Source: a virus
Lineage: Duplodnaviria > Caudoviricetes
DNA: 64,000 nucleotides
IMG/VR virus record: IMGVR_UViG_3300028591_000009
Location: 1 to 64,000 of that record
Direction: 5' to 3' (one strand)
The position numbers and the translations under genes are program-made. This document shows positions 6,941 through 63,006 of the stretch, in pieces (the stretch's first letter is position 1; each line of letters opens with the position of its first letter). The notes beneath the pieces are model-generated. The model was not told where the DNA came from. It worked only from the letters and a program-made list of their open reading frames with translations, and searched no databases.

Positions 6941-7544
6941 GCTCGTAAAGTCCGTTTTAGGCGTCGCTGTGGCGATTTTGTTGTCTTGGGGAATGATTCT
7001 CCACAAACAAAACAAAAACCTGTCAGAAAGCCTAGAAAGGGCTTAGAATAACATTGAGGCCTATTAGGGCTCCCTAGCGGGGTCCTAGTAGGCTAATAAT
7101 GTTTTAAGGCTTACCGTTGACGAACTACAAACACAAAATGATATACTCGTGCACAAAGTCGATAGTGTTAGAGAAAAACTTAAGATTAAATCTAAACAAC
7201 TTAAGACCGCTGCAACTTAGAGTTAGAGTATAAACGTTAATTAGAGTAAAGAGATAAGAGATACTTTATATAGAGATAATATATATAAAGACTCTATTAA
7301 GTTTAATGATTTAACTACTGTGTCTTACTGTATTGGTAAAGATAGTATAAACATAGGGTTAAATATAAATAATCAACAGTATTTGTATGTATTTAATGAT
7401 AGGCACTACAAGAACAAAAAGAGTTTCTTGAAGCGCTTATTTACTTTTGACTTTAAGAAAGTAACTACTACAAAATATAAGATAGAGAATACTAATGATC
7501 TAATACAAACAGATAGTGTTAGAGTCATAGAAATAAATAAGTAA
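6897..7544 (+). CDS. Spanin-like membrane-anchored coiled-coil protein, 215 aa with TAG=Gln
   Basis: N-terminal TM helix (VLGVAVAILLSWGMIL), coiled coil, beta-rich C-terminus; overlaps the holin; 7 TAG codons. Confidence 0.6.
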
Positions 7545-35614: not shown

Positions 35615-38600
35615 ATGGTATGTATTTATAATCCGTCTACGGAACAAATAAATGCATTAGATCGATATTCACGTATACTAGGCAGCGAAGAAGCTGCCTA
35701 CTACGTGTTATCGTAGAATAATGGATTTCCGCTAGACAAAACACCGAGCGATGAAGATTCTGACTTATATATAGATCTTGTCAATCATTATGGCAACGAA
35801 GAAGAAGCTATAAGAACAAAAGCAATGTTGTATACACAGCGATTCTTTGATGCAAATGGAGACTGGACTATGGGTTCGATGACTGATCCCTCGATGTATG
35901 ATGCAAAAGGAGAACCAAAGTCAAGTTTTGTACTTGGTTCAATGACTGGTGAAATGGAAAGTCTTATGAATCACCAGTTTTTGTTGGATACAGTTCATCC
36001 AACAATAGAATAGAGCGATCTTTCCAGAATTAGCCCTACAGATGATTTATCTGATTACGCTGTAGAATAGTTGATTAGGGAAAGCTACGATTAGTATACA
36101 GAACGACATAGAAACGAATATAAAAGAAACCATCCATCTGCCACAGATACCGAACTTGCCGAGTAGGAAGTTGTTGCTAGCAGATAGTGGTATAGTCGTA
36201 AGGTGTAGTCTATATTAACCGAACAAGTTAGATCTCTAGCTGAAGCTTTTGGATTGGTATATATACAAAAACCGAATGGTACTGTAGAATTACAAACAAG
36301 AGGAAGAAATGCTGTTACTGGTGTAAAAGAGCTAAGATTGAAGTTTTTAAATAATATAATAAACGATAGATTTGAAGACGAGTTAAGACAGTCTATATTA
36401 GGAAATGTAGTATTGTCTAAAGAGTTTACACTTAAAGTTCCAGGCGCAAAAGATTACATAAACGAAGCTGTTATACAACGTCGTAAAAGCGATAAGTTAA
36501 TAGCTGCTAGTACTCTTATAAACGTAAGCCTTACAGGTGGTACATCTACAACTGTAAATAAAGCATTAGCGTATCATTATATTACAATGTTTGTAGATAG
36601 CCCTCTAATTCAAGCTGGTTTGGAGGCCGTGAGAGATACTGACGACAGAAGCGAATTGTATCTTGTAAATAAGCTAGTTGATATAATAACAACTCCAGCC
36701 ATAGTTGGTGTAGAAAATTCTTCTTACGTTGGTAAAGCTTTTGAAAATGGAGTGTCTTATGAAACGTTTAAATCGTTTTGGGACGAATTCGACGATCTTA
36801 TTCATTAGGTTATAACAAACGGTGTAAAGTCTGAAGAAGCTAAAAAGAAGATATTATCTGTAGTTGCTGCAGCATTTATAACAAATGATCAATATAACTT
36901 GTGGAATCGCTCATTTGGTTATATGACAACAGGACCGATCGATTATTATGCGCAATGGTATTCTACAAAATATAAACCTTGGGGTGAATAGAATGAGGCT
37001 TAGTTATCAGAAATAGAAGCGTTCTTCAATTTATTGGAAACGTATTATCAAAATAAAATAAAAAGACAGGAACGAGATGCCAACGTATCTGCCGAACAAA
37101 CAACAAGAACCTCATTGGCTTTATAGTTCTTATAGTAGTCTGATAAAATGGATCCTACTTCGCAAGAAGAAGTTTTTAATAGTCTGTTTGAACTTGCATA
37201 TCAAGAAATTAGAGATGCCACGGAAGCTATTCAAAACCTCCATAATATAACTGGTATAAACGATAGATTTTCTAAGCTTGGTAGTATGTATAGCGATACA
37301 ATATCGTTTTATAATTATATACTAAATAATTAGCTAACTAAACATTTTGATCCAAGCAGTACAAAATTCCCAAGACAGATTGGTATGTATAATATGTTGT
37401 CTAATATGCTAAAAACATTAGATGGCATGTATAAAGAAAAACTGTATGATGTTTCATGTGAGTTTGTCGATAAATATATAGACAAACATATGGATATAAA
37501 TCAGGTAACTGCCGAAATGGTAAGGAACGCCAAAGAAAACGCACATAGAGAGCTTAGAAATAATGCTATATATGGAGATCTTAAGAATTACGAACTGTGG
37601 ATTACAATGAACTCTTTATCCAAAAGTTCGGTAGTAAGAATGATGCATGATTCTTTGCGCAGATTGAATTATAATCGAGATCAAGAAACATTATATGTGG
37701 CTCAATAGCTGCAAAAAGCTTTAAAAAAGGCATAGAAATCTTTGCTTAAAGGTGGAATTAAGTGGGCAGGATATAGGTTTGTACCAAAGAATTTCCAGAT
37801 GTTGTTTATGGAAAGATATGATGACGGTACACCTTCTGGAATGTTTACAAGAAAACGTCATTATGGTAATTTCTTTAAACGTAGAGCAGAGCTTGTAGTA
37901 CAGTTAGTAAGAGACATCGAGAAAGATATACAAAATAAAACTGGAAACATATATTTCAAGATGGAGCTTGATGACTACGGCAACCCTATATTTCCTGACG
38001 GAGAAGAGTGGGATGAATATTGGAGAAAATATTCACACGCTGTCAATGATTTTGAATGCAAAAATGGACATAAACGCTTCTTGCAAGAATATTACGACCT
38101 AAGAATAGATACTTTATCTAGAAAAGCAATTGCTCTCGAAGATAATATATAGAATTCTATAGATATAATCGAAAGTAGTGTGACAGAAGATGAGGTTTAT
38201 CGTCCAGACAGACTAACCAGAGAAGAGCGTGCTTAGTTATAGGATTTATATAGACAGCAAGATAATCTTGGAAATGAATATACTTTACTTGGAGAAAAGA
38301 AAAATGGAGAAGACCTTAAAATAGCTTAGGAAATAAAAGAGTTTAGAAGGCTTATTAAAGATCGCGTTGTTTATGAAACAGACGAAGATAAATATGAAGC
38401 CGCCAAAGCTAAAGTAGATCCGTCTGAGTTATCAGAATTTGAAAAATGGTCTACAAGTCTAGAAATAAATCCAAAATTTTGGGAAATTTATAAAATTCTC
38501 CAAAAAGAATACAGAGATCAATTTCCAGCTTATTTGAATCCTAATTTTGAACAAATAGAACGTCTTGGTAAAGAACGAAATGATATCGTAGATATAGTAA

Positions 38601-41600
38601 AACACAGACGCGGTTTTGCAATGCCAAATTTAAGAGATTTATCAGAAAGCTCTTGGAGAAGAGTAAAAGAGATAGATGAAGAAATGGATATTGCATACGA
38701 ACCGATTGTTGCGTATATGAAGTCAATGCCAAAAGGGTCTTTAATTCCTTCAGCATTCAAACGTATAGCAAGGTTAGATGATGTTATGGACAATAAAGAA
38801 CCAGACACAACAGCGTTTGACGCGTTAATGGATGAAGCAAGACAACTAGACGATGAAGAATCTTTAGCTTTAGGTGTTCGTGTAAACACACACGAAATGG
38901 AAGCTTTGGATAAATATACAAGAACCGTTGTTACTGATGGAGGAATAAAAACAGTTCCGTTAAGTATATTTTCATATATGAAACCTTCCGTTTTCCCAGA
39001 CGACGTAAAAGCCAGATTTGGAATAGGAGACGATTTTAAATATACGTTAATGCTTCCAAATAGAAAGTATAATAAGATGGTTGAACCAAGTTCTTCTAGA
39101 TATGCAGAACCATCTCTTGTTGATCCTGAATTTGATCCAAACGAAGATTCATATGTACAACCAACAGAGTTAAATCCAATATACGAAGTACTTGAAAAAG
39201 AGGCACCAAAAGAAGTATTTGAACTATATAAGTTATGCATGCAAATAAAACAAGAAGCTGACACATATATACCAATAAGTACAAAGCTTAAATATTTCTT
39301 ACCTCAAATGAGAGCATCTGATATGGCTGTAATAAGTAGAATGTTATCAAGAGGTTTATTGTCAACAACATAGGAAGTGTTTACAAATAAATTTATCGCC
39401 AACGAAACCGATGAAGAAATCATAGATGATTTTACTACACTTCCAGACGGAACTAGAGTAAACAGTGTTCCTTTAAAATTTGTTGATAAACTCAGAGATC
39501 CTTCACTATTATCTTCAGATGTTGTAGGTTCGCTAGTGCTTTATCAACACATGGCATCTAACTATTATTATAAACAATAGGTTGAGCAGTTATATCAAGC
39601 GTTATTATAGCAACTCGGTTAGGATTCTGATATTGTTACAGACGACGGAACCAGACATCTTGTACTTGGTAAAACAACAAACCAATATGCAAAATATAAA
39701 AACGTAATGGATAATTTGTTGTATGACCAAAAACAATTATGGGGAGAACGTGGAAGTTAGAAAATAACTGGTGTACAAAAAACTTTAATAAAAACCGCAA
39801 AATTTATTGCAAAACTTGGTACTATAACTGCATTGGGAAGAAATATTCTATCCTAGACTACCGGTTTCTTTGATGCTGCCGGAAAATTACATTCGTTTGC
39901 TTTTGCAGGAGACGCGTTTAATGTTAAGAATATAACAAGAGCTATTGCAATTTTTGATAAATATTTAATATCTGGAAGACTGTTTTTGGCTACTGGATAG
40001 ATATTACCAAACAATATAATAGCTGCGATAATGCAGAAGAATAATTTGAGCACTGGAATTCAATATAAATATCAGGGTGGATATAAAAATCGCTTTAGAA
40101 GATTTGTTGGAATGGAGCGCTCTGGTATGGGTGGATTTAGAGTTAGTGATTACGCTATAAATGCAGTTACAGCATTGTCTATATACGACAATTACAGACT
40201 ATTAGACGATTAGTTTTTACCAGAACGATCATTTAAAAATAAGCTGTATAAACTAGGATATTCCTCAAAAGAAATAGATAGAATGTACGATGACGCGTTA
40301 CCGTTATTGGACGCATATAATTATAAAGATAGTGTATTCTTCTTTGGAGATCCTGAGTTTGAACTTAAACAAGAGTATAAAGATATGCTCGGTGAAGCTG
40401 GTGTTACAAAACTAGAACAAGATATAGCAATAGCTGTATAGACTTGGACTCCAAAATTTAACGGAGCTGTTGCCGATGAAGATAAAGCTGTAATACAACA
40501 AAACATACTTGCTGGTTTTACAGTTGCTCTTCGTTCGTATCTCATTAATGAATTACAAACGCGTTTTGTAAACGGTGCAGATTTTTAGGATCCAAATATA
40601 TCTGAACACAAGCTTGAAATATTATAGGCTAGAAGAAAGGCTCTTGTTAAAGTATACAAACAGTCTTTAACTGATAATAAAAAGAAAACTAAACTACAAA
40701 AGCTTTTTGATAGACGTTCTGAAATAGAAGCAGAATTAATAAGTCTTAAGAGTTCTGGTGATATTAACAGTATAAATTGGGGTAATATAAAAGATTTAAT
40801 CGGATTATCTTCTATTGAGGTTGGGCTAGGATATGTTATAGGAAGTATAGCAGGCCCTGTTGGAGCATATGTTGGAGCTGGTCTTGGATTAGCTCAAGCG
40901 GCTGCAAACTTTTATACAAACCGTAAATAGTCTTCTGGAAGTAATGTTGGTATATTTATGTCTAAAGTTCGTAAATTAGAAGTCGAACTTAAAAGTATAA
41001 ATGCCTAGATTAGAGCGTATGAAGCTAGCGATAGCCGAGATTTGATTCTTATGGAAATACAATAGATAAACGAGCAAATTGTAAACATAAAAAATAAAAT
41101 CAATGAAAATCAAGGCTATTACGACTATGCGAGAAATATGTATACAAACGGATCTAATAGACTTGCCGGAAGATTAATTATGAATCTTGCTAGAAAAGCA
41201 CAGTTTTATATAAACACAATGCTTCCAGAAAGATTTAAGAGTTTATCTCCGAAATATAATCCAAAAATAACTCCAAATCAAATAAAAGGACTTAAACGTA
41301 TTGTTTATGATCTTGTACGTTTGATGTAGTGGTGGCTTATAACAACATTCTGTTTGTCATGGTATCGTTACGATGACGGTAGAGCTTTCTTAGGTGGAAA
41401 GTTCAACGAATAGACAACTTCTGTAATGCATAAAATGGATAGTGGTATAAAATCTGCCATAGACCCTGTAATGACATCTGATACATGGATTAAATTCTGG
41501 GAAGGTGTACACGATTCTTCGACAGATGGAGTTATTAGTCATATACCATTCTTTGATAAAGTTGCAGAAAACAAGTCTGACGCAATGCTTGGTTATACTA

Positions 41601-42106
41601 AAAAAGTTAGTAGAACTACAAAAGCAGTTACACGTAAAAAAATGGATGCTGTTCAAAAACAATTAGATTTTATAAAAATAGCAGCCGCTGCTTAGTCTCT
41701 CAAAAACTTTACAGAAGGTATAGCACCATACGACTACCAGACAATCAACGACCTTACAAACTCAGTTTCTGCAACAATAAATGTAATGACAAAATCTGTA
41801 GAGGCTGGACAAAATATGATTGTTGAAGGCCAACAAGGTAAACTAGAAGATCCTATGCAAGGTGGACCTTATACGGGATATTTTACCAGATCGGAATATG
41901 GTGCTGCACATTCTTGGTATAGGCCTTTTGGTTATCCTGCTTCTTATGAACAATCTACAGAAATAGGTTTGGTTAACCGCGTTAATTATCTAGGAAATAC
42001 TGGTCTTAATAGATTTGTAATACCCAAGAAAGAATCTGTTTAGAAGAAAGGAAATAAAAAGAAGAGCGGTAGAAAATCAAATCGTGGTGGACGTAAGTTA
42101 CGTTAA
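35615..42106 (+). CDS. Large virion cargo protein of the RNAP block, ~2163 aa with TAG=Gln
   Basis: Single frame joining track fragments 35825-42043; gaps read contain only TAG; ends in a basic tail KKSGRKSNRGGRKLR-TAA. Confidence 0.8.
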
Positions 42107-51867: not shown

Positions 51868-51948
51868 GGGACAGGTGCTGGATTCGAACCAACATTCTAC
51901 AGCTGACCTATAGCATTACTGCAGTACTACCATTATACTAACCCATCC
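51868..51948 (-). ncRNA. tRNA-like RNA with 14-nt anticodon loop
   Basis: 8-bp acceptor GGATGGGT/ACCTGTCC, D arm GTAT-AATGGTA-GTAC, T arm GTTGG-TTCGAAT-CCAGC. Confidence 0.7.
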
Positions 51949-53775: not shown

Positions 53776-53982
53776 TTATTTGTTAAAAACTTTGTTAATT
53801 AAACGAGTAATAAAACTCTTTCTCTTGAAGATATATACTATACCCTCTTCACCAGAATTGAATACAGCCTTAAGGTTGTAATCTTTGCTGTGTTTGTTTA
53901 AATCGGTGTTTGCCATAAAATGAGGCAGAACCACCTGCTTGTATTTTGGTTTCATCTTTGATAAATGAATTTTGTTAAACAT
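53776..53982 (-). CDS. Small basic hypothetical protein, 68 aa
   Basis: ATG start in A/T-rich context. Confidence 0.6.
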   Translation of the reverse strand: MFNKIHLSKMKPKYKQVVLPHFMANTDLNKHSKDYNLKAVFNSGEEGIVYIFKRKSFITRLINKVFNK

Positions 53983-54003
53983 GTTAATTATTGGGAAATA
54001 TTG

Positions 54004-54075: not shown

Positions 54076-54618
54076 TTACGCTGCCATATCAATCTTAAAC
54101 ATATCTGCTGTTGCAGCATCGAGATCGATAGAAGTCTTCGTATTAAAGTCCTCCATTGCAGTATCAAACTTGTTAGCCTTCAACTGGAGATCCTTAATCA
54201 TAGAAGCAATCTTTGCAGATGTGAATACCTCATCCTTACCGATATTCTTCAGACCCTTCTGAGCCTTAGTCTTCTGGTCAAGAGTAGGAATCATCTTCAA
54301 CTGACAAATAGCCTCCTTCATCTCGCAAGCCATAAAAATACTATAATTGTTCGTCTTCTTAAACGCCTCCTTGTCAAAAGTAGTAATACCCATATTCAAA
54401 TACATAAGCATACCCTTAATATAGACAAGTTTCTCGGCCATCTGTGTGATCTCATTATAGAGATTCTTCACATCATGGGAACGCAGACCAGCCTTAATCT
54501 CTTTCTTGGAGAGAAGGTTCTCTGCCTTAATATAATTCCAATACTTCTTCTTCTTAGAATTAATCTCATCGCGCATAGCGATTATCTTACTTGAATTCAA
54601 CTTAATTGATTTCGTCAT
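54076..54618 (-). CDS. Basic helical hypothetical protein, ~180 aa, ends IDMAA
   Basis: Track ORF 54076..54693; the ATG at 54618 (MTKSIKL) is the more plausible start. Confidence 0.7.
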   Translation of the reverse strand: MTKSIKLNSSKIIAMRDEINSKKKKYWNYIKAENLLSKKEIKAGLRSHDVKNLYNEITQMAEKLVYIKGMLMYLNMGITTFDKEAFKKTNNYSIFMACEMKEAICQLKMIPTLDQKTKAQKGLKNIGKDEVFTSAKIASMIKDLQLKANKFDTAMEDFNTKTSIDLDAATADMFKIDMAA

Positions 54619-54895
54619 ACTATAAACATTTGATTTAGTTAAACTTCCGTGAATTATGTTGAATTCGAGATTACCTACGTGCCTTATATCCAATCGCTTG
54701 TGTATAAAGCTAAAACTAATCTCCGAGGAGAGGGTCCCTCGAGACCCTACTCCTCAAAACACCCTCAAGTGTATAAATGAGATTGTTTTTATTGTTGTTT
54801 TTACACTTCTCAACTAAGATAAGAATTGTAATAATAAGTGTTTGTAAATCCTTGTCTGCTAATGCCTCGACATATACAGACTAAATCCCTCGAGA

Positions 54896-55484: not shown

Positions 55485-56159
55485 TTACTCGTTAGATGTA
55501 TGAACGTTAATCACACTCGTAGCGCCACCATTAAGGATGTCCTTAATCTTGACATTATCCATCTTGGAGTCGTTCCACTCCTTAGAAATCTCATCTGCTT
55601 TCTTATCGTTCTCGACGATAGCGCCCTGGATGTTCTGCTTCATCTTGTTCAGAGCTGACATCAGCATGTCAATGTTCTTGAGTTCAGCGCGGTTAGCGTC
55701 GTTCAGAACCTTGGCAACCTTCTTAGCGTCCAGGAAGAAGTTCTCACCCTCAGCGTGAATAGCAGCCTCGATTGCATCTTCGATGGGCTTCTCGGTTACA
55801 ACTGGATTAACACCGTTGTTGAGCGGGAAGAACAAATCACGAGTGCCATCGGGGCGAGCATTGATAGAGATACCTACCTGCTTAGCCTCACCGATACCTA
55901 CTGTATCGAAGCAAGCACCAATGATATCCTTGGTACGGAGCGTGTACTTGCGAGGAGAACGATTGGTAATCAACAGAGCAACACCAGGAGTGTTTGCCTG
56001 CTTCTTGTCGTTCTCAAAGCCTTCCTTGCCGCCGGCCCAGATTTCCTTCATTTCAACTTCAGTGTAAGCTTTGCCTAGCAAAGCACCAATAAGACTAGCA
56101 GCCTGACGAGTGCTAGGGATGACGTTTGAAATATTAACGTCGATAGTTTTTTCTGCCAT
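55485..56159 (-). CDS. Hypothetical protein with C-terminal coiled coil, ~224 aa
   Basis: Biased codons; AAAAATGGCA start context at 56159 as in the genes at 60230 and 63833. Confidence 0.75.
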   Translation of the reverse strand: MAEKTIDVNISNVIPSTRQAASLIGALLGKAYTEVEMKEIWAGGKEGFENDKKQANTPGVALLITNRSPRKYTLRTKDIIGACFDTVGIGEAKQVGISINARPDGTRDLFFPLNNGVNPVVTEKPIEDAIEAAIHAEGENFFLDAKKVAKVLNDANRAELKNIDMLMSALNKMKQNIQGAIVENDKKADEISKEWNDSKMDNVKIKDILNGGATSVINVHTSNE

Positions 56160-56229
56160 TTTTCTTTCCTTTTTGATATCGTGGTTGATCCACCAACGAA
56201 AGATTAATAATTCCTGCTTCAAGGTGCAG

Positions 56230-58340
56230 GTTTACCTTGTTTTATATAAGTTTTACATCCGGCTCGGTGGCTCTACTAGATGTTGACGTTAGACGGTTAT
56301 TGTGATTTCAGTTGCTGTGCTTACGGGAAGCACGCTTCTATTAGAGACTAGTTACACTTCTATATTCCTTAAAATGAAGCTCAACTCATGTAACGGGAAT
56401 CCAACGGTAGGATTATCTAAGCCCATCATCTCAATAGGTTCGAAAACTTTGAACGCTGAATATGTGTATCAAACACTAACCCTATTTGTCGGTATGTTTA
56501 TATTTTCGTAAACATTTATTAAATTTATATTAAATCCAATATTCACTTTTTTCGAGTCCGTTGGCAAAATTTTGGAATTATCCAACTAATGTTCATAGGA
56601 CTCACCACAAAAATTTTGCATAGTTTCTCTGTTAGTATATTTCCCAAGTACCTTAAGAGTTAACTACACTACGATTGTCATTTAACCACAGATTTTCTCT
56701 CCTGTTGCATGATTTAAGGCTCATACTACTATTACCTTTCCTTGTTATTTCAACGTGCTTGTGTTTACCTACGTAAGGATTACGTTTCTTTATCGAACAA
56801 TCTAAGAGCTCCATAACTCTTTTCAAGTACTACGATTTAAAATTCTTCCTAGCGATTCTACGGTACTAAATATTTCTTCTCTTGGATGTGTTTACTCACC
56901 CTCATTATTTATAGTGCACGAATACTGGAGGAATTCCACCTCATACATCGCTTCTTGTCACCCACTTAATGTTCCGCTTCATCGAGTCCTAGTTTCACAA
57001 ACTATCCCAAATGCAACTGGTTGTACGGTTTGCTACTTCTATTTCCTTTACCCCTCCGAGACAGGGAGGTGATTTCACTTCGCGATAAGCTGCCCATCGA
57101 TTAAATGTATATGACTTCATGGTCTCTACCGAACACATAGATTTGCTGTCTATGCTCTGATAGGATTCATCTTGTCTATTTGCTTCTCAGGAACGGTTGG
57201 CACTCGATTTCTGGCGTGAAAGCACTCACAAACATTACAAACGGAGTCTTTCGTTGATATACAACATTAATTTCTCCCAGCCAGGGGACATCAATTTTTG
57301 TTAAACATGTTAATTATCTCTTTTGTTTTCTACTACGTATTATCTTCGTTAGAATCTTCTCCCGATAAAGTATAACGGTATATTGTATACAGTTCGTCAT
57401 CTAACTATCATCTTACTTTCGAAGGAAGCGATCTCTCTCTATACTGGAATGTATAGGCTTCGAATCGACCACCTAGATAAGAAATTTTTGGCTATCTAGT
57501 AACCATCTAAAACGCATTTCCTCATCCTTCAAACATAATACTCGCTTACCAGTACTTGTTATCAATTGAAATAGAGTTTCTCCGCGCTCTTCATCCGCGT
57601 ACCATAGGCTCCAGAACCATATGGATTAAGTGGCGCATCCACTTGTAGTCATTTCCTCTTATATCCCGCACAAACGACTAAAGCCTGGCGGTCATCTTCA
57701 TCATATTTTCCTCTGTACCCCATCCCTGGCACCCCTTCAACGGAGTTGTGCACGAATCGAACGGCAAGGATTTCTCCAAGGACCGTAGTTACGGTACGGC
57801 GCAGACAGTCACACCTTCTGCTAGGCGAATATACTCAGATATTTTTCATCCCTTCATACACGTTGTGGAGACGTGGAACACTAGACTACAGCTTAAAGTT
57901 GATACATCATTGAGTGTTTTGGCTTCAAACTCAATGTTGCGACTCCTGTTTCGTTATGCTATCCTTATGTATCATCAGATAGTATGTCGAATACGGTTCA
58001 GTTTTGCCCATCATTCGGGACTTATGCGTCTTCCTTACTAATACCCCACACTTCAAAGAGTCTGGCAAGAGCATAAAGGACTCTGCTGGTATATATTAGT
58101 GTTAGGGTCTGATACATACGCTCACCCTACTTACTATAAGCGATTCGATTATGTAGTACGCATAAAACTTATAGCATTTCATCCTACCTTTTGGATTTCT
58201 CACCATTTGAGATGGCTAACATATTCTCGGATCAAGTTGTACTATTCGCATTCTAAGGTTGATGAGACCTACTCCGTAGACGAATGCTGACGTGTGCCCA
58301 TCGGGCGGGGAATGTATGAATCCTCATACATCCCCCATGC
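56230..58340 (-). ncRNA. ~2.1-kb structured non-coding region; candidate large ncRNA(s)
   Basis: No - strand ORF of 60 aa or more; dense inverted repeats, nested helices and one pseudoknot; purine-rich - strand. Confidence 0.55.
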
Positions 58341-58350
58341 ACCGGAGTGA

Positions 58351-58833
58351 CTAACGCTTGTAGACTACCTCACCGTCGACTGTGAGGCAAATGGACGCTT
58401 TAGGAGGTCCAACAGTGTCTGGGGTGTACTCCTCGCGAACCCCACGTACTTTGTTGTTAACAATACTATCAGGAATTATAGCTGGTGTGCTCAACCCCTG
58501 ACGTTTTATTGTGGCACGAGCAGATGTACGCTTCTTCTTGTACACTAGGTTCTTTACTCTCGGAGCTTGAGATGTGTCCTTAACAACCACTATTTCTAGT
58601 GGGACATACTCTTTCTCCGTTTTGTTCTGTCTCTCAACTATAGGTTGAGTGATAGATGGCAACGGCAATGCTCGATAATCGGGCAGCGTTGCAGCGTTCA
58701 ATGTCTGATGCTTGCGCATAGACATCTCATTGTTCTCTACCTCCGCTAATGACCACCCTGCTAGGGCAAACAATAGCGAACAAATAATTGTTGTAACTAG
58801 TTTCATACCTTTGATAGATTTCGAAACTATCAC
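58351..58833 (-). CDS. Membrane-anchored or exported hypothetical protein, ~160 aa (TAG stop)
   Basis: N-terminal hydrophobic segment LVTTIICSLLFALAGWSLA. Confidence 0.7.
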   Translation of the reverse strand: MIVSKSIKGMKLVTTIICSLLFALAGWSLAEVENNEMSMRKHQTLNAATLPDYRALPLPSITQPIVERQNKTEKEYVPLEIVVVKDTSQAPRVKNLVYKKKRTSARATIKRQGLSTPAIIPDSIVNNKVRGVREEYTPDTVGPPKASICLTVDGEVVYKR

Positions 58834-58838
58834 ATCAC

Positions 58839-60230
58839 TTAACCCTTCTTCTCCTCAGGAACAGGAACTTCAACGAGATTGCTCTCCTTGTAGTTGATAG
58901 ACTGAGACAGAGGATCGGTGAACATGTTGACAATAATGCCAGCACGCTGCTGAACATTCTTCAGCAATGCCTCATTAGTCTCATCATCAAGCTCCTTACC
59001 CTTGAACTCAGGATAGTAAGTGTCAATGATATTACCAACCAGACGGTGAGCAAGTTTGTACTCCTCAGAGTCAGTCTTGTCAGACTTGTAGTTGTCAATC
59101 AAAGCGTCTACTACCTCGAATGAAGGATTGGTAGTTTCTGTGATAATCAGGTTCAACTCCTCGATGGCGGTCTCGTTTGCACGAATAGCAGTTTCAGTTG
59201 CTACCTTTGCAGCGCCCTTCTCGTTCTCAAGATGCTTCTTCTGCTCCTTGATAACTTCGTTGCACTCAGCTATTCTACTGTTACATGACCACAGTAAGAG
59301 AATGCGAACGATGTCAGCCACGTACTGATCGTCAATGGTATTGTCCTTCTCAGGAACGGCACTGCGACGATAGAGGCAGAACGACGAAATGGGACTTCCA
59401 GTCTCAGCGGAACGCTTGCGAAGAAAGTAAGCAGTGCCAGTCAATGCAAATGGGCAAGGACCAACAATCTCTGCTATCTCATCCAGCAACTTCTGGCGAG
59501 ACTTATCCTTAACTTCGTTAACGGCAGCCGTCTTGTCCTCAGTAGCATTGGCCTGGATGGTCAAATAGCCACGATAGAACTTGATGGTACGTTGTACACG
59601 TGCGTCTGGGCGATCAATACCGTCAGAGATAGGCTTTACGAGCATGGCTGTGAGAGATGCCTTTAACTGCTCAGGAGTCTTTATCTCCGCAGGATTGCTA
59701 ACTGCCTTGGCGACAGATTCCATTTCCTTCTTTTTGCTTTTGATGGTCTTTTCAGACACGTCCTTCTTGTCAATTGTAACAACACGTGTCTCAGCTGGAA
59801 GAAGGCCAACAACACCTGCCTGTTTGAGCTGTTCCTCTGTAGGAGCAGGAAGCATCTTGAACTCAGGAAGCTTAATTCCGCGCTCAATTGCCATACCCAT
59901 CAAGGCGTTGTAGTTGTTCTCGTTAGCTGTGATGATAAGACCAGCAACACTGTTGCCAGATGCTATCTCAGTAATAGCGACATCGAGGATTGATACTTGT
60001 GCAAGCATGGTGAGACCATCGATAGTGCACTGAGAAGGCTTCTCGGTATTGGTCATCAAGAATGCACGTTCGTTTTGTAGTGCGCCAATATAAGCGACTT
60101 TATCGCTCTGGCTCATACCCTTTGTGTTAGGGTTATTGTTTACAGGAAACTTCACTGTAGTATTATTTTCAGGAGCTCCCTGTGCTTCTGCTGCTGCTGC
60201 AGCTGCAGAAGTCTTGTTGTTTTTTGCCAT
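58839..60230 (-). CDS. Hypothetical protein, 463 aa
   Basis: Long ORF with biased codons and an A-rich start context. Confidence 0.85.
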   Translation of the reverse strand: MAKNNKTSAAAAAAEAQGAPENNTTVKFPVNNNPNTKGMSQSDKVAYIGALQNERAFLMTNTEKPSQCTIDGLTMLAQVSILDVAITEIASGNSVAGLIITANENNYNALMGMAIERGIKLPEFKMLPAPTEEQLKQAGVVGLLPAETRVVTIDKKDVSEKTIKSKKKEMESVAKAVSNPAEIKTPEQLKASLTAMLVKPISDGIDRPDARVQRTIKFYRGYLTIQANATEDKTAAVNEVKDKSRQKLLDEIAEIVGPCPFALTGTAYFLRKRSAETGSPISSFCLYRRSAVPEKDNTIDDQYVADIVRILLLWSCNSRIAECNEVIKEQKKHLENEKGAAKVATETAIRANETAIEELNLIITETTNPSFEVVDALIDNYKSDKTDSEEYKLAHRLVGNIIDTYYPEFKGKELDDETNEALLKNVQQRAGIIVNMFTDPLSQSINYKESNLVEVPVPEEKKG

Positions 60231-60313
60231 TTTGATAACGGTTTTTTAAATTAATTACTTGTGGTTGGTTAGTCCACTTAACTATAACCATAGGAACTGA
60301 TTGTAGTAGACTT

Positions 60314-60727
60314 TCAAGAATCGTCTACAATTTCTACACTGTTTGGCGGGTTTGGCAAAGCGTGTAGGTATAGTCTATGAGTCACCCCACAGACATCACT
60401 TAAAGTCTGGTTAGGCTCAACCATATCAGGCGTATAATCCTGACTCACAAGGCTTGAAGTTACCTTCACTGGTGTTGTATAGTCTACATACTCAGGAATA
60501 CATACGAATGTTCCCTGTGTAGCCAACAACCCTTGTGTGGGGTACGCCTGGTTGAGCATGACCTGACTTTGTTCCTTCTTTTCGATTGCCTTATGAGCAA
60601 TCGTTCCTACTGTGAAAGCTAATGTATAGCTTACAAATAGGGCCCAGAATACTTTGTTGCTATTGTTGTATCTTGCGATACCCAATATAAACAGTGTTCC
60701 GAGAATGAACAATAAAGCTACTGTCAT
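60314..60727 (-). CDS. Two-TM membrane protein, 137 aa (possible anti-sigma partner)
   Basis: Two N-terminal hydrophobic helices; ATGA-coupled to the sigma gene. Confidence 0.65.
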   Translation of the reverse strand: MTVALLFILGTLFILGIARYNNSNKVFWALFVSYTLAFTVGTIAHKAIEKKEQSQVMLNQAYPTQGLLATQGTFVCIPEYVDYTTPVKVTSSLVSQDYTPDMVEPNQTLSDVCGVTHRLYLHALPNPPNSVEIVDDS

Positions 60728-61287
60728 GATTGTAATTTTAAACGTTGTCTTAACTTACGTCTAGTCCTGGAGAGCGTGGATTTTATAGTTCCTACTGGTA
60801 CTCTAGGATTAAACGTCTTACTAATCTCTTCTACGGTTAAATTATCTACATAAAATCTTTCAAAGATCTTACGAGTGACCTCTGGAAGTTTCTCAAACTC
60901 ACGAAGTAGTTCCTTATACGTCAGATGATTGACTAAGTCATCTTCAGCACAAGCCTGAATATTGGAGTTTAGTCGGTCCTCCTTTATATCAGCTACTTGT
61001 TTGTTCTTTATACTACGCAAATAATCAATTGCAGTTCGATTAGTCAATATTCGCAGCCAACCCCCAAAGGAGTCGTATGCTACAAATTTCGAGAGTTTAT
61101 CATGCACTTTAAGAAAGACAATATTTGCCACTTCTTTAGACTCGTCCATATCTTTTAGATACTGGAACAAAAGACTCTCTACAAAGCCTTTATACTTGTA
61201 GTAAAGTGCATTAAAAGCAAGCTCATCGCCTGCTTGCGCTTTTTTGATTAAGTCAACTTCAGTTGGGGTGATTCTAGGATTCTTCAT
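60724..61287 (-). CDS. ECF-type sigma-70 factor, ~187 aa
   Basis: AQAGDELAFNALY, SFGGWLRILTNRTAIDYLR (region 2), LPEVTRKIF...VGTIKSTLSRTR (region 4). Confidence 0.9.
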   Translation of the reverse strand: MKNPRITPTEVDLIKKAQAGDELAFNALYYKYKGFVESLLFQYLKDMDESKEVANIVFLKVHDKLSKFVAYDSFGGWLRILTNRTAIDYLRSIKNKQVADIKEDRLNSNIQACAEDDLVNHLTYKELLREFEKLPEVTRKIFERFYVDNLTVEEISKTFNPRVPVGTIKSTLSRTRRKLRQRLKLQS

Positions 61288-61389
61288 AATCAAAAACAAT
61301 TTACTCGGTTTATTAAGGTGTCACTCCTGTACGCGGAACCGAAACGCTTAGTGGGCAGTGGGAATACCAATCCCGTTAGGTTTTCTGCC

Positions 61390-62362: not shown

Positions 62363-62364
62363 AG

Positions 62365-62438
62365 TGATTCCTGAACGATTCGAACGTTCGACCGACAGAT
62401 TAGAAATCTGTTGCTCTATCCAACTGAGCTAAGGAACC
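62365..62438 (-). tRNA. tRNA-Arg(TCT)
   Basis: GGTTCCT/AGGAATC acceptor, GCTC-AGTTGGATA-GAGC D arm, ACAGA-TTTCTAA-TCTGT anticodon arm, GAACG-TTCGAAT-CGTTC T arm. Confidence 0.92.
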
Positions 62439-62499
62439 TTTTGAGGCGTTTGTTTTTATAGTGGTGTCAAGCGAGCCTCTGTAAGCATGTCCACAACAT

Positions 62500-62549
62500 T
62501 GGAATGAGTGCAGGCTTCGAACCTGCCATAGTTCCGTTATTACTCATTC
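62500..62549 (-). ncRNA. tRNA minihelix-like element (acceptor stem plus T arm only)
   Basis: GAATGAGT/ACTCATTC 8-bp stem and GCAGG-TTCGAAG-CCTGC joined by a 15-nt linker. Confidence 0.65.
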
Positions 62550-62551
62550 AC

Positions 62552-62860
62552 CGTTCACAGGCACTTAGGTAGCCTGTACACCGACTTCACGCTGCCTCCT
62601 GGAGACCCGTGTAGTCTGCAATGTTATAATTGCCAGTTAATTTTTATATCGAAGCGCTTAACGTCTTACTTTCCGCTGCCGTCAAAACCATTCAAGCCCA
62701 GATTAAAAGCTCCCGCCTCTATCCTCTGTACACCTTCTTCAGTGCCAGCGAGTACACAATTCAGGGAGCTTGGAGTGTTAATCAATAATACACGTGGACC
62801 TGGGCGGAATCGAACCGCCGTCCGAACAGCATATCCTAGGACACGCTAAGATTTCACTTG
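62552..62860 (-). ncRNA. ssrA: Circularly permuted (two-piece) tmRNA: acceptor piece ~62860-62795, intervening sequence 62794-62700, coding piece 62699-~62552
   Basis: Acceptor GGGCUUG/CAGGUCC-A with G3-U70; GGUUUUGAC D-loop analogue; GGAC-GGCGG-UUCGAUU-CCGCC T arm; tag frame 62634-62587 = GNYNIADYTGLQEAA-UGA after UUAACU. Confidence 0.88.
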
Positions 62861-63006
62861 TGAACCTCACAATGATCAGTTGTAAGATTCGATTTAAGGC
62901 TATTTACAGCCTCTCTGACGCATTTTCTATACTCTTGTGGGTAGCTAATCCTCTGGAGTATATTAAACGCTTAGAATGGCTTTTTCATAAACCTTTATTT
63001 GTAGTA

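Follow-up and report, generated by a model that had tools for sequence, protein, structure and literature searches.

What does a phage keep in 2.1 kb of DNA that hold no credible gene? The window analyzed here, i.e., the whole stretch of 64,000 nucleotides, covers the initial 64 kb of a virus record (IMG/VR IMGVR_UViG_3300028591_000009) that is complete at 106,602 bp and carries direct terminal repeats, and all genes between 42 kb and 64 kb lie on its minus strand. In the direction of transcription, their order begins with a permuted tmRNA and a tRNA-Arg, followed by small genes, an ECF-type sigma factor (60724–61299), a membrane protein, a 463-aa protein and a 160-aa membrane-anchored protein with a TAG stop at 58353–58351. 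Then comes the gene-free tract, about 4 kb downstream of the tmRNA and tRNA. A 224-aa protein, several further genes including those for two very basic proteins (291 aa, pI 10.4; 255 aa, pI 9.9), and DNA polymerase B are found 3′ of it. The tract sits in an early/middle gene block, with the sigma-factor cluster on one side and replication genes on the other. An earlier note had proposed that it specifies one structured non-coding RNA of about 2 kb or two of about 1 kb. From the comparative sequence analysis described below, we consider it probable, with good confidence, that the tract is a conserved structured non-coding RNA locus.

Coding potential and protein neighbours

No ORF longer than 97 aa was present on either strand at 56223–58350, in line with the earlier statement that the tract holds no credible ORF. 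In this phage, late genes are recoded at TAG, e.g., a frame of 2163 aa with 38 in-frame TAG codons spans 35615–42106 when TAG is read as glutamine. Stop recoding therefore had to be considered, as the earlier note had also suggested. Reading TAG as Q, TGA as W or TAA as Q opened no frame in the tract. Mismatches between the window and four relatives were spread evenly over the three codon phases (e.g., 161/167/164), and indels were mostly not multiples of three. The tract hence displayed neither an open frame nor the three-base periodicity and indels in threes of a protein-coding region.

Hidden or decayed coding sequence, i.e., small proteins, a recoded gene, an intron-broken gene or a dead gene, might still be invoked because GenBank annotates ORFs inside the homologous tract: eleven of 31–102 aa in PP511876 and one of 168 aa on the opposite strand in PV686213. 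However, these annotated ORFs vary in position and strand among genomes. Group I and group II intron models gave no match to the tract at E-values up to 10, and the element, which is positioned between complete genes and present in every relative, was not identified as an intron. Moreover, a dead gene would not keep islands of 80–95% identity and covarying helices across genera. Given also the missing codon periodicity, the indel pattern and the frames closed under every stop reassignment, we regard this explanation as practically negligible.

Apart from the ECF-type sigma factor, the neighbouring proteins had no match in Pfam or PHROGs, and nothing useful came from the ESM Atlas. AlphaFold predicted an entirely helical structure for the 463-aa protein (pLDDT 78), without a recognisable fold and without a PDB match at E below 0.08. 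One homologue, P0089, was fused to ribosomal protein L11 on a 2.4-kb contig. We read this as a chimeric assembly because the join cuts both proteins at arbitrary points, and we discarded it as a clue.

Conservation and covariation of the tract in Suoliviridae

Blastn with the tract matched solely crAss-like phages of the family Suoliviridae, subfamily Oafivirinae (genera Bohxovirus, Chuhaivirus, Buhlduvirus, Cacepaovirus and Burzaovirus). Near-identical sequence was found in public runs from sheep and cattle gut or rumen. Homologous loci were collected in two sets. The first, of 34 loci from IMG/VR, was fetched via the neighbouring 463-aa protein; a query with the single protein gave nothing, and an alignment of its homologues found the loci. 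The second, of at least 100 loci, was fetched with a degenerate 36-nt pattern taken from the island of highest conservation in the tract. These sets were supplemented with five GenBank Oafivirinae genomes and Dulem virus 42. An nhmmer search with a profile of the tract gave near end-to-end matches in every locus that was long enough (39 + at least 100 + 1), at E-values from 1e-108 to 0 (2e-176 for Dulem virus 42). A colinear full-length homologue is thus found at the same genome position in at least 130 relatives within Suoliviridae, mainly Oafivirinae.

Among the matches listed, there were 108 distinct copies, which we reduced to 40 representatives by merging copies that were near-identical in megablast (at least 88% identity over 80% of length). 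Most pairs of representatives were merely 50–60% identical, with about ten colinear islands of 75–95% identity and, between these islands, variable stretches with length changes. The adjacent 463-aa protein shared 26–33% identity between genera, and homologues of the downstream 224-aa protein were detected by tblastn in just two GenBank relatives. Because its islands are 75–95% identical, compared with about 30% or no detectable similarity for these proteins, the tract is the best conserved feature of its neighbourhood, and, being better conserved than the surrounding proteins, it must matter to the phage. Three further Suoliviridae subfamilies that we checked also had an ORF-free gap of 1.9–2.5 kb at the same position. 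The gap contained two colinear nhmmer profile matches in Loutivirinae (cr52_1; E 7e-15 and 1.5e-8) and several common motifs in the same order in Boorivirinae (cr1_1); in Uncouvirinae (cr118_1), the gap alone was evident.

Five matches fell into bacterial genome bins (Segatella copri, Bacteroidaceae and Lachnospiraceae) on contigs of about 100 kb or fragments. Most likely, these are phage contigs co-binned with bacteria, and the bins are therefore at most a weak host hint.

We searched the alignments for helices without using energies, i.e., all column pairs were scanned for runs of at least 85% standard pairs, with the parallel register as control. With 22 sequences, 11 antiparallel helices had at least three compensatory pairs versus none in the control; with 40 sequences, there were 20 versus 1. 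The RNAalifold consensus of the whole alignment contained 283 pairs in about 65 helices. Of its cells, 91.1% were standard pairs versus 35–41% when the 3′ partners were slid by 1–3 columns, and 878 cells had changed on both sides versus 154–202; these and the following slid controls overstate the contrast somewhat because the folds were optimised on the alignments that were also scored, a weakness of which the parallel-register control is free. The effect was present in every segment of the element, with the fewest pairs in the A+U-rich part at 56950–56480. We also ran a counting tool on three independently made alignments. Standard pairing and double changes were 89.8% (slid, 33–48%) and 116 (15–35) in the 3′ domain, 90.4% (37–47%) and 243 (35–59) in the central domain, and 88.6% (37–45%) and 118 (17–46) in the domain opening the 3′ half, and in each of the three none of 500 shuffles reached the observed covariation score. 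Covariation in relatives, which the earlier note had named as a check of its proposal, was thus present along the whole element in the helix scan, the consensus fold and the counting tool.

The same note had called the tract densely structured. Folding energies of 250-nt windows in the tract were no lower than those of dinucleotide shuffles (z −1.8 to +1.5), so this second suggested check came out negative, and dense structure is invisible from one sequence. Its remark that the minus strand is purine-rich did not hold either, as the purine content of 56.5% is ordinary compared with 54–57% in the flanking genes.

The strand of the RNA could be read from the pairs. In paired columns, G-U cells outnumbered A-C cells (211 versus 40), and the long-range helix between 57290–57284 and 56963–56956, 99.4% paired, varied only by C to U changes that lead to G-U pairs. 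The RNA sense is hence that of the minus strand, the same as for the neighbouring genes. This bears on a DNA-level element, e.g., a replication origin, a packaging site or a protein-binding region, with hairpins forming in single-stranded DNA. Such an element would account for a large non-coding region adjoining replication genes, and the 8-nt palindrome AACATGTT contained in the core of the mid-element signal (Table 1) would suit a dimeric DNA-binding protein. However, tolerance of G-U and not of A-C pairs argues for selection on one transcribed strand, and conservation of 2 kb as colinear short helices is unlike known origins. Moreover, a search of the tract found no iterons and no inverted repeats, long ones included, and of direct repeats only one of 12 nt in two copies, and the cumulative GC skew passes straight across without a turn. 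We consider a DNA element very improbable. The tract accordingly showed no features of either a replication origin or a decayed gene, two of the outcomes that the earlier note had set against its own reading.

The domains and helices are compiled in Table 1. Several helices that had been pointed out from the single sequence were kept with compensatory changes in relatives, namely those at 56333–56317, 57936–57908, 58175–58133 and 58336–58307, and the outer helix of 57972–57968 with 57906–57902. Two proposals were not borne out: the hairpin at 57499–57473 was paired in just 45% of cells in 40 relatives, and the pseudoknot suggested at 56554–56619 was 58–63% paired and lies in a poorly aligned variable part. 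New here are a covarying H-type pseudoknot at 57691–57645 and the 22-nt mid-element signal at 57317–57296. In stem 1 of this pseudoknot, the pair 57688/57669 switched twice from C-G to A-U, once in L002/L004/L014 and once in L010, which are separate lineages. The surrounding central domain has variable-length expansion segments among invariant single-stranded motifs. Conservation was 0.8–0.85 across 58225–58176 in the 5′ domain, and 27 of the 32 pairs of the 3′ domain had changed on both sides. ARAGORN found no tRNA inside the element nor inside the L018/L023 insertion. The palindrome ACATGT, a possible kissing-loop site, was present in only 78% of the representatives.

Table 1. Anatomy of the element on the minus strand, listed 5′ to 3′, with the second copy of the 22-nt signal
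Feature	Position	Strand	Description
5′ entry	58296..58350	-	directly after the TAG stop of the 160-aa gene
TCACTCC box	58350-58344	-	conserved, in 5′ entry
13-bp hairpin	58336-58307	-	strong hairpin of different sequence here in most of 40 representatives
Small hairpin	58306-58296	-	covaries within the window's clade
5′ domain	58095..58271	-	helix scan and consensus fold, compensatory pairs
Conserved box GGUCUCAU	58269-58262	-	start of 5′ domain
5′ domain helices	58271-58255; 58235-58178 (three tiers); 58175-58133; 58129-58103	-	
Central domain	57640..58005	-	15 helices; alignment A3, 65 pairs
H-type pseudoknot	57645..57693	-	in the most conserved island of the element
Pseudoknot stem 1	57691-57688 with 57669-57666	-	
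Pseudoknot stem 2	57681-57672 with 57654-57645	-	4 pairs changed on both sides
Linker-rich part	57320..57640	-	23 pairs, 92.6% paired vs 33% slid
Short covarying hairpins, linker-rich part	57595-57568; 57554-57539; 57505-57489; 57466-57430	-	
22-nt signal	57296..57317	-	mid-element, core AACATGTTTAAC, unpaired; sharpest island of the element
Domain opening 3′ half	56956..57290	-	closed by 57290-57284 with 56963-56956; alignment A5, 40 pairs
Inner helices of this domain	57241-57225; 57203-57089; 57155-57135; 57090-57086 with 56968-56964; 57033-57013	-	
Least conserved A+U-rich part	56483..56955	-	20 pairs only
Supported helices in A+U-rich part, few	56943-56926; 56862-56794	-	
Conserved island in A+U-rich part	56798-56783	-	
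3′ domain	56300..56482	-	7 helices; alignment A2, 32 pairs
3′ domain closing helix	56460-56456 with 56311-56307	-	
Probable 3′ end	56239..56282	-	read directly from 22 aligned downstream flanks
Covarying 3′-end hairpin	56282-56278 with 56260-56256	-	conserved AGAGCC...GAGCC interior
Outside RNA	56163..56230	-	second covarying hairpin 56230-56213, then leader of downstream gene
Second, only other signal copy	53970..53991	-	14 nt upstream of ATG (53956) of a 59-aa ORF

Boundaries, transcription and the number of RNAs

A scan of the tract for sigma-70 promoters and terminators performed no better than on shuffles. At the 5′ entry, no U-tract follows the hairpins. As neither a U-tract nor a terminator separates the upstream gene from the tract, read-through from this gene is likely. 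At the other border, the 56282–56256 hairpin is followed by a U-rich run in most relatives; in the window the run is weak and not clear, and a terminator scan of the window did not call the hairpin. Together, hairpin and run may represent a terminator. The downstream gene probably starts at ATG 56159 and not at TTG 56222. Its leader has a conserved hairpin and an A-rich stretch, and its helix of 56203–56198 with 56168–56163 shows four compensatory pairs.

Parts of the stretch were contained in 14 RNA-labelled ruminant runs. In four ruminant studies, RNA-library contigs span the element and continue into the genes on both sides; their source could be carried-over DNA or a polycistronic transcript. 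Such contig coverage, related to the metatranscriptome check listed in the earlier note, extends over the element and its flanks alike. The summed word depth was 2–10 times higher over the element, but contigs of relatives, attracted by the conserved sequence, and possibly DNA contribute to this sum, and the excess is therefore no evidence of expression or of RNA ends. Transcription of the element is plausible.

A giant cis-acting UTR, i.e., a 3′ UTR of the 160-aa gene or a downstream leader that controls read-through into the replication genes, would need no free-standing RNA. It would agree with the common orientation of tract and neighbours, the upstream gene without a U-tract terminator after it, the RNA-library contigs across both borders and the terminator-like hairpin at the 3′ end just ahead of the next gene. 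However, 2 kb with some 60 conserved helices, dozens of invariant unpaired positions and a pseudoknot would be oversized for this role, and we know of no bacterial or phage leader that approaches such a size. In addition, the downstream gene owns its separately conserved leader hairpin, and conservation of the RNA greatly exceeds that of the genes under its supposed control. We hence judge a UTR quite unlikely.

The 22-nt signal occurs in exactly two copies in the 106.6-kb genome, where chance would give none. Behind the second copy, the 59-aa ORF precedes the genes for the two basic proteins, whereas no conserved ORF or ATG follows the mid-element copy. In relatives, we found 18 same-strand copies off the mid-element position; 14 of them lie 15–23 nt before the ATG of an ORF of at least 40 aa, and the gene behind the second copy varies. 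Among the matches listed, the core AACATGTTTAAC was found mid-element in 86 of the 108 distinct copies. We read the signal as putatively marking gene starts, as a promoter or as a binding site for a protein, on DNA or RNA. Because its only other copy sits before a gene start, the locus may encode two RNAs, and if the signal indeed marks gene starts, two RNAs of about 1 kb are a serious alternative to a single RNA of 2 kb, and the 3′ half would be tied to the expression of the two basic proteins.

Two independent RNAs would be a variant of the RNA locus proposed here and do not exclude it. RNA-A (58350–57320) would be co-transcribed with the upstream genes and RNA-B (57290–56250) would start from its own promoter, the 22-nt signal. 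Such an arrangement agrees with the position of the signal elsewhere, 15–23 nt before gene starts and on the same strand only. Within the element, the signal is unpaired and flanked by poorly conserved linker, and the strand that follows next, 57290–57284, opens a domain that closes at 56963–56956. Position 57300 is crossed by no well-supported helix; as we found no strongly covarying helix that links the two halves across it, the view of a single RNA is left without support from pairing. On the other hand, none of about 30 relatives has a terminator-like hairpin with a U-run ahead of the signal, and read-through from the 5′ half is therefore likely. The signal is also unlike the sigma-70 promoter consensus and, presumably, unlike the Bacteroidota promoter consensus as well, which we likewise count against two RNAs. 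Alternatively, a protein might bind it on RNA or DNA, and its core was missing at up to one mismatch in 22 of the 108 copies among the matches listed. We consider two RNAs a real possibility, somewhat short of an even chance.

We therefore propose a gene locus at about 58350–56240 on the minus strand that would specify a very large structured non-coding RNA of Suoliviridae crAss-like phages and would be transcribed in the direction of its neighbours. Its 5′ half (about 58350–57320) would be read through from the upstream gene. The 3′ half (about 57290–56250) would start at, or be governed by, the signal at 57317–57296, the only other copy of which would mark the start of the operon for the two basic proteins. 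The RNA would end at the hairpin and U-rich run near 56250.

Comparison with known large RNAs and possible roles

With cmscan against Rfam at gathering thresholds, the whole window yielded only three tRNAs and the permuted tmRNA. A permissive search of 55900–58700 at E-values up to 10 added only RAGATH-18 (23.6 bits; gathering threshold 44.9) and a snoRNA (16.7 bits). The tract matched neither the GOLLD (RF01998) nor the ROOL (RF03087) model, in accordance with the earlier note, which had been unable to place it in these families, and SSU and LSU rRNA models gave no match to it at E-values up to 10. By these searches, the putative RNA locus matches no catalogued RNA family. The proposal of one RNA of about 2 kb or two of about 1 kb is thus supported by end-to-end homology, the absence of a coding signature, compensatory changes over the whole length and the lack of an Rfam match.

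The element shares the properties of large ornate phage RNAs, i.e., a long non-coding stretch, covariation-supported structure and a phage genome as origin. Like the element, GOLLD is a large, ornate, covariation-supported and phage-encoded non-coding RNA with a conserved core and variable regions. GOLLD is often found near tRNA genes (PMC12286853), comparable to the tmRNA and tRNA upstream of the element. In contrast, GOLLD is slightly longer than 800 nt, compared with about 2.1 kb or two parts of about 1 kb, and there is no match in sequence or structure. Moreover, GOLLD forms an RNA-only 14-mer cage (PMC12286853), whereas the element is known here from sequence alone, and the host lineage differs, as the element belongs to crAss-like phages of Bacteroidota-rich gut and rumen communities.

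ROOL is likewise encoded by phages and prophages. It has multiple pseudoknots and was first seen in cow rumen; the element has an H-type pseudoknot and also comes from rumen phages. No protein partner or function is known for ROOL, which can equal 16S rRNA in abundance (PMC12286853). At about 580–660 nt, it is much shorter than the element with its 2.1 kb; the secondary structures are unrelated, and there is no Rfam match. Overall, the element is two to three times larger than GOLLD and ROOL (0.6–0.8 kb).

In architecture, and not in kinship, the element resembles rRNA. Both have kilobase length, domains closed by long-range helices, short helices, invariant unpaired motifs, variable-length expansion segments and an unremarkable single-sequence folding energy. 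Unlike rRNA, the element shows no sign of ribosomal proteins or of a translational role. A further likeness is to the autogenous control sites of ribosomal-protein operons, where the mRNA mimics the binding site on rRNA. Here, too, a short motif occurs once in a big structured RNA and once before the start codon of a basic-protein operon. This likeness is pure analogy, as the motif of the element may be a DNA promoter and the gene that follows varies between relatives.

As to its mechanism, we tentatively suggest an architectural RNA, a self-assembling scaffold or RNP core that might form in the infected cell, perhaps together with the co-signalled basic proteins; this is possible, although we would not call it likely. 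The fit is poorer for a base-pairing regulator or an mRNA leader. More speculative, with a small chance of being correct, is an RNA machine or RNA-built compartment of about 2 kb that would be common to the sampled Suoliviridae and have no known counterpart. As a cage or an RNP with the basic proteins, it might serve to trap ribosomes, tRNAs or release factors of the host and thereby aid the takeover of translation, e.g., around the TAG-to-glutamine switch.

To our knowledge, very few structured RNAs of more than 1 kb are found in bacteria and phages, rRNA aside. At about 2.1 kb, a covariation-supported RNA locus in Suoliviridae would exceed all others of its kind. GOLLD, ROOL and OLE, the biggest ornate classes, measure 0.6–0.8 kb, and all form unexpected RNA-only assemblies (PMC12286853). 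Suoliviridae, the ‘delta’ group, is the largest group of the human-gut crAss virome (PMC7886860). We found no description of a non-coding RNA in crAss-like phages in the literature; in Yutin et al. (2021), the only mention is of ORF-poor regions, chiefly in the Zeta group. In public records, the region is either unannotated or occupied by spurious tiny ORFs. With a covariance model of the element, the annotation of hundreds of genomes would be corrected, and this phage family would gain a sensitive marker.

Folding and conserved structure around the element

Two 250-nt segments outside the structured non-coding element, at 54600–54849 and 60100–60349 on the minus strand, folded much better than their shuffled counterparts (z scores of −5.9 and −4.1, respectively), and both overlap intergenic spacers. 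In contrast, no such excess over shuffles was found for the element itself. The gene downstream of the element, coding for a 224-aa protein, is preceded by a strongly conserved leader (56163–56203, minus strand), i.e., a covarying hairpin and an A-rich stretch immediately 5′ of its likely ATG at 56159. Found in almost all relatives, this leader occurs only once in the window at up to three mismatches, weak matches aside.

The element and its neighborhood in relatives

In two relatives, an insertion follows the conserved 5′ box of the element (L018, about 7190–7300; L023, about 7260–7340). It carries a tRNA-like T-arm (GGGG-TTCGACT-CCCC) together with an acceptor-like 3′ strand; ARAGORN called no tRNA in these insertions. 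Public records annotate ORFs within the homologous element, namely eleven of 31–102 aa on both strands in PP511876.1 (3960–5968) and one of 168 aa on the opposite strand in PV686213.1 (5172–5678). These are likely mis-annotations. P0089, a homologue of the 463-aa protein encoded near the upstream side of the element, comes from a 2.4-kb contig and runs at residue ~321 into a truncated ribosomal protein L11; this fusion is probably a chimeric assembly. Three element-bearing contigs of ~100 kb have been placed in bacterial bins, two (L141 and L145) with Segatella copri and one (L144) with Bacteroidaceae, a placement that could point to the host or simply reflect a binning artefact.

Translation-related RNA genes and TAG recoding

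Among the tmRNA and tRNA genes called in the window are the following three, all on the minus strand. ARAGORN reported no tRNA at the site of the 42-bit Rfam call.

tmRNA and tRNA genes in the window
Feature	Position	Strand	Remarks
Permuted tmRNA	62496–62886	−	Rfam score of 64.5 bits; tag peptide predicted by ARAGORN ends in ...LQEAA
tRNA-Arg(TCT)	62364–62438	−	Adjoins the permuted tmRNA
tRNA	51869–51947	−	Rfam, 42 bits; immediately upstream of the DNA polymerase gene

Read with the standard code, the window is apparently without genes at 39.4–42.2 kb. When TAG is read as glutamine, 35615–42106 (plus strand) opens as a single frame of 2163 aa with 38 in-frame TAG codons, which points to TAG recoding of the late genes. 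TAG still serves as the terminal stop of minus-strand early genes.
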